NCBI GenBank assembly: GCA_035546275.1
Contig: DATKHW010000362.1
Location: 1 to 39,411 of the forward strand
Source: Gemmataceae bacterium
GTDB taxonomy: Bacteria; Planctomycetota; Planctomycetia; Gemmatales; Gemmataceae
DNA: 39,411 nt
Reading direction: 5' to 3'
The position numbers and the translations under genes were made by a program. Position 1 is the first letter of the stretch. Each line of letters begins with the position of its first letter. This document shows, piece by piece, positions 37,978-39,411 of the stretch. The notes beneath the pieces are model-generated. The model worked only from the letters and a program-made list of their open reading frames with translations, made no database searches and was not told the origin of the DNA.

Positions 37978-39411
37978 ATGGCGGCCGCCACCCGCGGCAA
38001 CGCAGCCCACGCCGCCGAGCACGTGCCCAGGCGTCGTCCTGGGGAGGAGGATGGGACGTTGGACGCGACGGTCGCTTGCGGTACGGTCCGATCGACGGTG
38101 GGCTTTTCCGGTGAGGCGCTCGACGGCTTCGCGGAGAGGAGCGGCGGCGCGGCGCTCGGCCAGCCGCTTCGCCCTAGCCCTTCGCCTCTCCAGGAAGCAT
38201 ACCCCGGCCCGGCCTTGCGCCTCGTCGCAACGGCTTGCGACCGACCCCACGACGGCGCCGCGAGCCGCCTGCTCCTCATCAGCGAGGATGCGGCCCTGAC
38301 GCCGGAATTGCTGCGCCGGACGTTCCCGGCCCCCGCGCATCGGGTGCGGGCGGCCGGCGCCGACTGCCTCGCAACGGAAATCGGCCGCAGCGACTCGCCG
38401 GACGTCGTCATCCTCGGGCTGGGGCTGCCCGACGCGAGCGGGCTGGAGATCTGCCGGCACATCCGCCGCCTTAACCCGCGCGTCCCGGTCATTTTCGTCG
38501 CCCGATCCCGGCGCGCCGACGCGGCCATCGAGGCCATGAAGCACGGCGCGTTCGACTACCTGTATCAGCCGCTTGACCTGGGCCGGCTGCGGCGGGTCGT
38601 CGGCGAGGCGCTGGAAGTCGGGCGGCAAATGCGTCGACCAGCCGCGGCGGAAGACTGCGAGGCGGACCCGGACCCGGAGGCCGTGGTCGTCGGGTCGTGC
38701 CCGGCCATGCGCGAGGTCTACAAAGCCATCGGCCGCGTCGCCGCCCAGGACGTGCCGGTGCTGATCACCGGCGAGAGCGGCACCGGCAAGGAGCTGGTCG
38801 CCCGTGCCCTCTACCGGCACGGCCCGCGGGCCGAGGCGCCTTTCCTGGCGCTGAACTGCGCCGCCCTGCCGGAGGCGCTGCTGGAGAGCGAGCTGTTCGG
38901 CCACGAGAAGGGCGCCTTCACCGGCGCCGACCGCAAGCGCATCGGCAAGTTCGAGCAGTGCCACGGCGGCGCCCTCTTCCTCGACGAGATCGGCGACATG
39001 CCCCCGGCCCTCCAGGCCAAGATCCTGCGGGTGCTGCAGGAGCAAGCATTTGAGCGAGTGGGCGGCAACGAAACCATCCGGACGGACGTGCGGATCATCG
39101 CGGCGACGCACCGGGACCTCAAGGCGTGGTCGGCGGAGGGAAGGTTCCGGGCGGACCTGTATTACCGGCTGAGCGTTTTCACCGTTCACCTGCCGCCGTT
39201 GCGCGAGCGGGGCGACGACCTGCTGCTGCTGACGCGGCACTACCTTCACCGCTTCAGCCGGGAGCTGGGGCGCGAGGTGCGCCAGGTCGCGCCGGAGGCG
39301 CTGGAGCGGCTGCGGGCCTACTCGTGGCCGGGCAACATCCGGGAACTGCAGAGCGTCCTCAAGCAGGCCCTGCTCCAAGCGAGCGGCGCCGTCCTGCTGC
39401 CGGCCTTCTTG
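37978..39411 (+). CDS. sigma54-dependent activator (NtrC family) with pseudo-receiver; 3' end cut by window edge, start uncertain
   Basis: Frame 1 is open from ATG 37978 to the window end and is not in the ORF track because no stop is reached. [23 protein letters not shown] are present. The receiver reads LLLISED, VVILGLGLPD (Asp replaced by Gly) and YLYQPLD (Lys replaced by Gln). The true start could be further downstream (e.g. GTG 38098 or TTG 38215). Confidence 0.88.
   Translation, partial: MAAATRGNAAHAAEHVPRRRPGEEDGTLDATVACGTVRSTVGFSGEALDGFAERSGGAALGQPLRPSPSPLQEAYPGPALRLVATACDRPHDGAASRLLLISEDAALTPELLRRTFPAPAHRVRAAGADCLATEIGRSDSPDVVILGLGLPDASGLEICRHIRRLNPRVPVIFVARSRRADAAIEAMKHGAFDYLYQPLDLGRLRRVVGEALEVGRQMRRPAAAEDCEADPDPEAVVVGSCPAMREVYKAIGRVAAQDVPVLITGESGTGKELVARALYRHGPRAEAPFLALNCAALPEALLESELFGHEKGAFTGADRKRIGKFEQCHGGALFLDEIGDMPPALQAKILRVLQEQAFERVGGNETIRTDVRIIAATHRDLKAWSAEGRFRADLYYRLSVFTVHLPPLRERGDDLLLLTRHYLHRFSRELGREVRQVAPEALERLRAYSWPGNIRELQSVLKQALLQASGAVLLPAFL

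Follow-up and report, generated by a model that had tools for sequence, protein, structure and literature searches.

A sigma-54 activator with a degenerate receiver beside an ECF sigma factor and Ser/Thr kinase operon in Planctomycetota

How does a sigma-54 activator receive its signal when its receiver domain lacks the aspartate that accepts the phosphoryl group? The question is raised by Act3, encoded at the end of a 39,411-nt stretch of Gemmataceae DNA (GenBank assembly GCA_035546275.1, contig DATKHW010000362.1), hereafter called the window, with a G+C content of 67.7% over its 39.4 kb. A motif scan that included GAFTGA detected three paralogous sigma-54 activators in the window, Act1, Act2 and Act3 (Table 1). 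Act1 is a canonical activator divergent from a hybrid histidine kinase (HK). Act2 and Act3 carry degenerate receivers and each adjoins a gene for an extracytoplasmic function (ECF) sigma factor followed by a Ser/Thr kinase with a tetratricopeptide repeat (TPR) sensor. The favoured reading, held with somewhat more confidence than doubt, is that Act3 is a functional member of a planctomycetal NtrC-type lineage that is uncoupled from His-Asp phosphotransfer and takes its input from the ECF/Ser-Thr kinase operon, an input that is suggested by gene context.

The sequence-only reading of this locus had claimed that the acceptor Asp of Act3 is replaced by Gly, the conserved Thr by Ala and the conserved Lys by Gln. 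All three replacements were borne out by profile, pairwise and structure-model alignments. The domain matched Pfam Response_reg with 59.6 bits against a cut-off of 30.2, and the residues were equivalent as claimed. They are G120 (GGG, 38416-38418, within VVILGLGLPD), A148 (GCC, 38500-38502, within FVARS) and Q170 (CAG, 38566-38568, within LYQPLD). A phmmer search against all PDB chains placed them on the acceptor Asp, the Thr and the Lys of solved receivers, the aligned structures being LuxO 5ep0, KdpE 1zh2/4l85 and 8svz. VVILGLGLPD aligned to LIILDLGLPD of KdpE, with the Ala of the KdpE D52A mutant against the Act3 Gly; FVARS aligned to IMTAH of LuxO, and LYQPL to LIKPC/YLSKPF. At the same columns about 95% of the non-extended relatives carry D, T and K (MAFFT and hmmalign, more than 200 family members; family alignments of 120 and about 85 relatives), and the receivers of Act1 and Act3 aligned free of gaps. 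In two AlphaFold models G, A and Q each lie where a strand (β3, β4 and β5, respectively) finishes on its C-terminal side, the location of active-site residues, and G is the last residue of β3 in both. No other Asp was found at the acceptor position in the alignments or models. The change from Asp to GGG requires at least two base changes.

The description of the acidic pocket as reduced held in part. In LLLISED (38269-38289; S75, E76 and D77 encoded at 38281-38289) the first D of the DDD triplet is Ser, but an E-D pair remains, situated in the β1-α1 loop of the model and aligned to the metal-binding E-D of LuxO and KdpE. We take it to be equivalent to D11/D12 of NtrC. The triplet's metal-binding pair is ambiguous, since 14 of the 123 sequences in the alignment (120 relatives and the three window paralogues) have DDN instead, and the acidic pocket of Act3 may be intact. 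Asp phosphotransfer is nevertheless excluded for Act3 because Asp, Thr and Lys are all replaced, and the sequence supports the earlier statement that classical His-Asp phosphotransfer is impossible. Act3 fits the definition of a pseudo-receiver or aspartate-less receiver (ALR), namely a domain that is detected as a receiver but in which the acceptor Asp, or any one of the five catalytic residues, is missing (PMC12632262). Missing from it are the features of a phosphorylatable receiver, i.e. the acceptor Asp, the Thr/Ser, the Lys and a nearby cognate HK, the downstream side lying beyond the window; the only HK within the window is the partner of Act1. Pseudo-receivers make up about 6% of bacterial receivers, arise repeatedly and are mostly under unknown control, and a 2025 review states that their mechanisms "remain a mystery" (PMC12632262).

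The Act3 receiver has lost its phospho-chemistry while keeping its fold and the α4-β5-α5 signalling face. With a clade-specific alignment, AlphaFold predicted a (βα)5 fold at a predicted local distance difference test score (pLDDT) of 90-95. The α4-β5 segment is conserved as in canonical relatives and invariant in the family. In the first AlphaFold model the AAA+ part was poor owing to the shallow alignment, and contacts between receiver and ATPase were not read from it. The best Foldseek matches of the Act3 model were NtrX, NtrC4, NtrC1, LuxO and FleQ, and the VpsR structure was also among the matches. The AAA+ module had been called fully intact and proved so: Walker A (GESGTGK, 38770-38790), GAFTGA (38911-38928), Walker B and the sensor II region were detected in the motif scan, and the module is 84% identical to those of Act1 and Act2. 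Among the three paralogues, AAA+ identity is 84-86% and receiver identity 58-61%. The Act3 frame runs open to the window end, over 451 codons whose third positions have a G+C fraction (GC3) of 0.89. Pfam added HTH_8 to the same domain set in Act1 and Act2. The C-terminal DNA-binding domain of Act3 lies outside the window, and its full-length relatives L004 and P0126 have a Fis-type HTH_8. The range flagged at first, 38260-38600, does hold the receiver, but the gene begins at 38059, 210 nt upstream of the flagged region, and runs to 39411.

The additional upstream codons form an N-terminal extension that sets Act3 apart from canonical relatives, which begin two to three residues before β1 (MAHLLLIDDD). 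The relatives whose receivers are degenerate all have such an extension. The Act3 coding sequence most likely starts at TTG 38059, judging from the sequence around it. The DNA of the start region is parallel base for base between Act2, GAGGAGGAttgcATGTTGGAGGCGACG, and Act3, GAGGAGGAtgggACGTTGGACGCGACG, with the ATG of Act2 represented by ACG in Act3, where TTG 38059 is the codon directly after it. The in-frame ATG at 37979 may be an alternative start. The N-terminal motif of Act3, DATVACGTVRSTVGFSGEAL, aligned to the family motif MSxAAxxCExxR[SP][TV]LP[YF]F, and a second motif, PALRLV, was found about 20 residues before β1. The segment PALRLVATACDRPHDGAASR aligned to PGLRILEVPDDRTDHRVTAD of P0020. 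Altogether, the extension aligned with the N-termini of about 25 relatives, with phmmer matches in the receiver frame only. AlphaFold gave it a pLDDT of 37-62 without secondary structure.

The family was surveyed by a profile search of 1.84 billion representative proteins, by a word-indexed search and through loci fetched from genomes. From Gemmataceae, Isosphaeraceae and other Planctomycetota, about 29 distinct members with the N-terminal extension were recovered; Myxococcota relatives were also among the matches. At least one of D, T and K is missing in 23 of the about 29 N-extended members, and about 12 are without the Asp. The D/T/K states observed were D/A/K, D/A/R, G/T/K, G/A/K, G/T/Q, A/T/E, S/T/T, V/N/H and G/A/S; Act3 has G/A/Q and Act2 has D/A/Q. 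All six N-extended members with D/T/K have an altered acidic triplet (GDD, DGD, DAD, GDA), whereas about 95% of the non-extended relatives are canonical, reading DDD(D/E/N)-D-T-K. Receiver identity to the canonical consensus was 67% in degenerate members versus 81% (Mann-Whitney p = 4.5e-4), and AAA+ identity was 87% versus 85%, which is not significant. Act3 has the most diverged receiver of the family, with 61.5% identity to the consensus, and an AAA+ domain with 88%. Neither among 5.8 billion proteins nor in the genome collection did any Act3 orthologue exceed 58-61% receiver identity. Judged by the alignments, the variety of residue losses shows the apparent signature of relaxed selection on catalysis only. 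Such a pattern would be expected if catalysis were dispensable while the receiver retains a structural or regulatory role. Monophyly of the degenerate activators was considered from an AAA+ tree and dropped, the tree being star-like and without resolution. The shared N-terminal motif and an upstream element described below are better clade markers than this tree.

The strongest argument for the source of control is the neighbourhood. The divergent upstream neighbour was scored in 34 genome loci and extra contigs. A divergent HK was present beside 22 of 22 canonical activators, Act1 included. In contrast, a divergent ECF sigma factor was present beside all ten evaluable N-extended or degenerate activators (Act2, Act3, L001, L004, L012/L090, L020, L081, L082, L087 and the P0073 contig), followed by the TPR Ser/Thr kinase where the contig allows. 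D, T or K is missing in eight of the ten, and the other two, L004 and L087, have an altered acidic triplet. For HK versus ECF neighbour, Fisher's test gave p = 4e-6, a nominal value for loci that are phylogenetically related. In L001 and L004 the ECF gene is separated from the activator by other genes. The ECF proteins form one tight orthogroup (alignment of eight orthologues), and their sigma-2.2 region, at the position of the DAED motif, reads LNLQPDELLGAVVERLL. The order of ECF gene and then kinase recurs in L001, L020, L082 and L004. In the window the two genes are separated by 33 nt in the Act3 module and by 18 nt in the Act2 module. No anti-sigma gene was found between ECF gene and kinase in the loci, and no anti-sigma open reading frame (ORF) fits the 33-nt gap in the Act3 module. 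For the ECF gene of the Act2 module, the ATG chosen by the ORF caller (18079) lies inside a TATGAT box, and the homology start is about 14 codons downstream, MSGEPTTGAVQRYL (18079-18121, + strand). The kinase beside Act3, STK_a, has an intact kinase domain and membrane segment (ORF 34912-37230). Its counterpart in the Act2 module is STK_b. At the genomic level, these counts support the proposal of the sequence-only reading that the adjacent kinase/sigma pair is the source of control, through a mechanism that we infer.

Both kinases (34912-37230, - strand; 18736-22134, + strand) also share a conserved N-terminal segment within the first about 80 codons, ahead of the kinase domain, ELLxELLD..PE(A/E)VCxxCP(E/D)LLP..VR, with a CxxC. 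It could be a sigma-binding or anti-sigma-like module.

A non-coding element of about 40 bp lies 60-120 nt before the activator start, with the consensus ..ATCRTAnnnnTCCnCTGTCCnCCnGCCACGCYnAG. Copies were found upstream of Act2 (18051-18084, - strand; 0 expected by chance) and Act3, and in L001 (9739), L012 (736; L012/L090), L014 (7879), L081, L082 (7622), L087 and L089. A metagenome scan with the element gave three true loci among nine matches. In L001 and L014, whose activators have no ECF gene directly beside them, the element is still present upstream of the activator. A coding function was dropped as an explanation, the reading frame differing between loci (L012, L014). Read on the reverse strand, its distal end is TAYGAT, a -10-like box about 35-40 nt before the ECF start; in the Act3 copy this is TATAAT (37922-37917), and the start codon of the ECF gene follows about 36 nt further on. 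The element could be a shared promoter or operator. It had no match in Rfam, a simple sigma-70 consensus scan gave no match, and the element itself is not a sigma-54 -24/-12 site. Apart from the copies of Act2 and Act3, no further copies were found in the window. The NmpR site GCGCA-N5-TGCGC was not enriched in the window, and rpoN is absent from it.

Upstream of the ECF gene, no sigma-54 -24/-12 promoter (GG-N10-GC) was detected above background in seven loci. The scan was able to find such sites, because it recovered the near-consensus promoter TGGCATggcggTTGCT at 31594-31579 (- strand), 74 nt before an ORF resembling acyl carrier protein (ACP). One of the three activators may act at this promoter. 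The ACP-like ORF (DLGAESIDFLD) extends from about 31505 on the - strand, and is followed by a universal stress protein gene (30546-31115).

Under the favoured reading, the lineage would have arisen by duplication of a canonical HK-paired activator. The membrane kinase would sense a periplasmic cue via its TPR domain and activate the ECF sigma factor by phosphorylation, as in ECF43-type pairs. Most likely, it would also phosphorylate the activator on Ser/Thr, either in the N-terminal motif (R-S-T) or in the pseudo-receiver, and this phosphorylation would release or promote assembly of the AAA+ ring. The intergenic element would co-regulate both transcription units. Sigma-54-dependent transcription would be the output, and the enhancer-controlled genes concerned would probably be those of the canonical paralogue. 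The helix-turn-helix (HTH) domains of Act1 and Act2 (2621-2830 versus 16346-16570, both - strand) are nearly identical, with an identical recognition helix; therefore, the degenerate paralogues probably act on the same enhancers as the canonical one, either as its partners or as its competitors.

Several observations weigh against this reading. L014 is without an ECF neighbour and has cydAB upstream, and the clade members L004 and L087 retain D/T/K. The loci are related by phylogeny, so that the Fisher statistic overstates their independence, and synteny indicates association, not direction. The Act3 copy of the element is the most diverged one, and its ancestral ATG is ACG. STK_a has two apparent frameshifts, one near 35310 (inside GGGCGGGCGG) and one near 34340 (tblastn against STK_b), and its TPR sensor is split over three ORFs. 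The frame switches may be real lesions of a pseudogene or assembly errors, and the kinase partner of Act3 may be impaired in this copy. STK_b is intact, and Act2, with an intermediate pseudo-receiver and intact ECF and kinase neighbours, is the better experimental copy. Finally, canonical HK-activator pairs have the same ECF-kinase orthogroup at a distance of 4-8 kb in L011 (1-1969) and L028 (1591-3733), and the ECF-kinase pair may therefore act on the pathway another way. In L028, CysD lies upstream of the ECF-kinase pair and no degenerate activator adjoins it. In the window, the canonical module and one degenerate module are 12 kb apart. A functional link between the ECF-kinase pair and the canonical system may already exist.

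The main alternative is a cascade that works through transcription only: the activator would be constitutively active, and the kinase would act on the ECF sigma factor, the sigma factor on the activator gene and the activator on the sigma-54 regulon, with control by abundance. We consider it unlikely. The position of the conserved element before the activator gene, kept even without an adjacent ECF gene, agrees with it, and in some copies an AAC hexamer lies 17 nt upstream of CCACGC, loosely resembling an ECF promoter. Control of constitutively active pseudo-receivers by availability is also known (PMC12632262). However, the AAC hexamer is not kept in L087, L089 and L001, the TAYGAT at the conserved end is on the opposite strand and faces the ECF gene, and no further copy of the element was found in the window. 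A purely transcriptional cascade would also leave the conserved disordered N-terminal motif unexplained.

Act3 might instead be a partner or competitor of Act1 at the same enhancers, forming mixed rings or competing with it and adding the ECF/kinase input to the His-Asp pathway, which we regard as distinctly improbable. The HrpR/HrpS hetero-hexamer is a precedent for mixed rings. The high AAA+ identity of the three paralogues and the shared recognition helix of Act1 and Act2 would suit such an arrangement, as would the proximity of canonical and ECF-kinase modules in the window, L011 and L028. The star-like AAA+ tree has been counted on this side too, homogenisation being possible, but it has no resolution, and conservation of the AAA+ domain is general in the family across genomes and need not mean interaction. 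In that tree the degenerate activator L012 from another genome grouped with Act1; mixed oligomers or homogenisation could be the cause. A wider proposal is rather improbable: in a three-part module, the TPR kinase, which is eukaryote-like, would control both the ECF and the sigma-54 programme, acting on the activator via the disordered N-terminal motif, and the pseudo-receiver activators would form mixed rings with the HK-controlled paralogue or compete with it at the same enhancers. If true, a single AAA+ machine would integrate His-Asp with Ser/Thr signalling.

That Act3 is merely a decaying paralogue on its way to a pseudogene, with substitutions of no regulatory meaning, is very improbable. 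The frameshifts of the neighbouring kinase, an insertion sequence-like ORF nearby, the lost ancestral ATG and the most diverged receiver of the family would fit decay, but they are opposed by the long open frame with its high GC3, the intact motifs and the conserved AAA+ domain, the conserved fold residues and α4-β5 face in a confidently modelled receiver, and the recurrence of the degenerate state in many genomes. The ORF in question (33192-33761, + strand; HTH_32/HTH_28/HTH_29) has domains typical of the N-terminal part of IS630-type transposases and lies just beyond STK_a. A frameshifted N-terminus, suggested by an out-of-frame ATG (37958) just after AGGAGGA, was considered as well and rejected: this AGGAGGA is the tail of the upstream element, the family N-terminal motif lies in the receiver frame, and the ribosome-binding site and start are at 38044-38061.

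Least probable of all is a reverse cascade in which the activator drives sigma-54 transcription of the divergent ECF-kinase operon: the divergent arrangement would suit it, and the receiver-less activators HrpR/S drive ECF32 HrpL from a sigma-54 promoter (PMC8999054, PMC5263251), but the ECF genes of the seven loci have no acceptable GG-N10-GC promoter upstream and carry the -10-like TAYGAT/TATAAT box instead.

Table 1. Coordinates of the three activators, their modules and the parts of Act3 in the window.
Feature	Position	Strand	Description
Act1 with hybrid HK, canonical comparator module	2621-8429		
Act1, canonical activator	2621-4063	-	DDD/D/T/K, without N-terminal extension
Hybrid HK of Act1	4209-8429	+	PAS/GAF/HisKA/HATPase/REC/Hpt; divergent from Act1
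Act2 paralogous module	16346-22134		Upstream element 18051-18084; ECF sigma factor ~18121-18717 (+); Ser/Thr kinase with TPR 18736-22134 (+)
Act2	16346-17944	-	N-extended; D kept, T→A, K→Q; acidic triplet G-D-A
STK_a, Ser/Thr kinase with TPR sensor	33862-37230	-	Pfam Pkinase 171 bits; co-oriented with ECF gene
ECF sigma factor beside Act3	37264-37881	-	Divergent; Pfam Sigma70_r4_2 and Sigma70_ECF
Non-coding element upstream of Act3	37915-37953	+	Diverged copy
Act3 ribosome-binding site and start	38044-38061	+	Ribosome-binding site GAGGAGGA 38044-38051; TTG 38059-38061, 7 nt further
Act3 coding sequence	38059 to window end, 39411	+	Start TTG most likely; 3' end beyond the window
Act3 N-terminal extension	38059-38268	+	70 residues, predicted disordered
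Act3 pseudo-receiver	38263-38634	+	PF00072 59.6 bits, PDB alignments, AlphaFold
Act3 linker, receiver to ATPase	38635-38688	+	Acidic and Pro-rich, flexible; low pLDDT, without secondary structure
Act3 sigma-54 interaction AAA+ domain and lid	38689-39411	+	Sigma54_activat 241 bits, AAA_lid_14 70.9 bits

The remaining genes of the window are of several kinds. Between the two ECF-kinase modules (24101-33193) lies a redox and stress gene cluster with two catalase-related proteins, cytochrome b561, a ferritin-like protein, a pyridine-nucleotide disulphide oxidoreductase, SDR, Usp, DUF4142 and DinB. Related loci contain AhpC/redoxin (L082), cytochrome bd oxidase (L014) and ergothioneine genes (L004). 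Such gene content hints at a redox or oxygen theme. An RND efflux operon with an AcrB-type pump and a HlyD-type adaptor (10988-16272, + strand) converges on Act2, and the P0073 contig has an RND gene fragment between the ECF gene and the activator. Near the Act1 module, 45-1542 (+ strand) encodes a 4Fe-4S dicluster protein and an NrfD-type membrane subunit resembling polysulphide reductase or alternative complex III.

The region is a natural experiment, holding a canonical activator with its HK, a paralogue that has kept the Asp and lost Thr and Lys, and a paralogue that has lost all three. Replacement of an HK by a Ser/Thr kinase as input of a sigma-54 activator can be tested here directly, as can the role of the N-terminal motif and the coupling of ECF and sigma-54 programmes. 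The clade and its three-gene module appear to be new; the Act3 protein itself is one more aspartate-less receiver. In the literature examined, no sigma-54 activator with a degenerate receiver was found as a conserved ECF-kinase partner, although an earlier mention in surveys of ECF-kinase contexts is possible. With this module, the planctomycetal ECF-kinase pairs gain a conserved third partner.

Among known systems, FleQ/FlrA of Pseudomonas and Vibrio resemble Act3 in overall architecture only. They combine a pseudo-receiver, an AAA+ domain with GAFTGA and an HTH, they are not phosphorylated on Asp, and their receiver is a dimerisation or regulatory module. FleQ, however, is under the control of c-di-GMP and the FleN ATPase, with a divergent FleQ-type domain of its own, whereas Act3 still belongs to PF00072 (Pfam gives Response_reg and no FleQ domain), is 58-61% identical to its canonical paralogue in the receiver, and has a disordered N-terminal extension and a link to an ECF/Ser-Thr kinase operon. 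FleQ is a known example of a sigma-54 activator with a pseudo-receiver, and VpsR resembles this case. In RitR of Streptococcus pneumoniae the receiver fold is likewise recognised and the acceptor Asp missing, and this ALR regulator is reportedly phosphorylated by the Ser/Thr kinase StkP. RitR differs in being an OmpR-type DNA binder that is phosphorylated in its DNA-binding domain, whereas the output of Act3 is a sigma-54 AAA+ ATPase and its link to a kinase is syntenic only.

Activation of ECF sigma factors through phosphorylation by Ser/Thr kinases is established (PMC8999054, PMC13147305), and kinase-associated ECF groups of Planctomycetota comprise ECF59-62 and ECF217, with EcfP-PknT and EcfK-PknS as ECF43 pairs (PMC7826278, PMC8999054). 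The pairs of the window are like ECF43, ECF59-62 and ECF217 in having an ECF gene and then a membrane Ser/Thr kinase without an anti-sigma gene, and in their planctomycetal setting. A divergent sigma-54 activator as conserved third partner is unmentioned in the published ECF-kinase descriptions that were examined. HrpR/HrpS and HrpL of Pseudomonas syringae also couple activators without phospho-control to an ECF sigma factor, but HrpR and HrpS have no receiver at all and drive the ECF gene from a sigma-54 promoter, which is absent here in seven loci. The closest comparison is the Act1-type canonical family, with the high AAA+ identity of the window paralogues, the same receiver scaffold and, for Act1 and Act2, nearly identical HTH domains; its members differ from Act3 in keeping DDD/D/T/K, starting at β1 and being paired with a hybrid HK. 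This family is possibly related to the Myxococcus NmpR-type NtrC-like regulators with PAS/GAF hybrid kinases. In Myxococcus xanthus, sigma-54 activators with an FHA domain are thought to take Ser/Thr kinase input. They do so with an N-terminal FHA domain that binds phospho-peptides, where Act3 has a degenerate receiver and a disordered extension.

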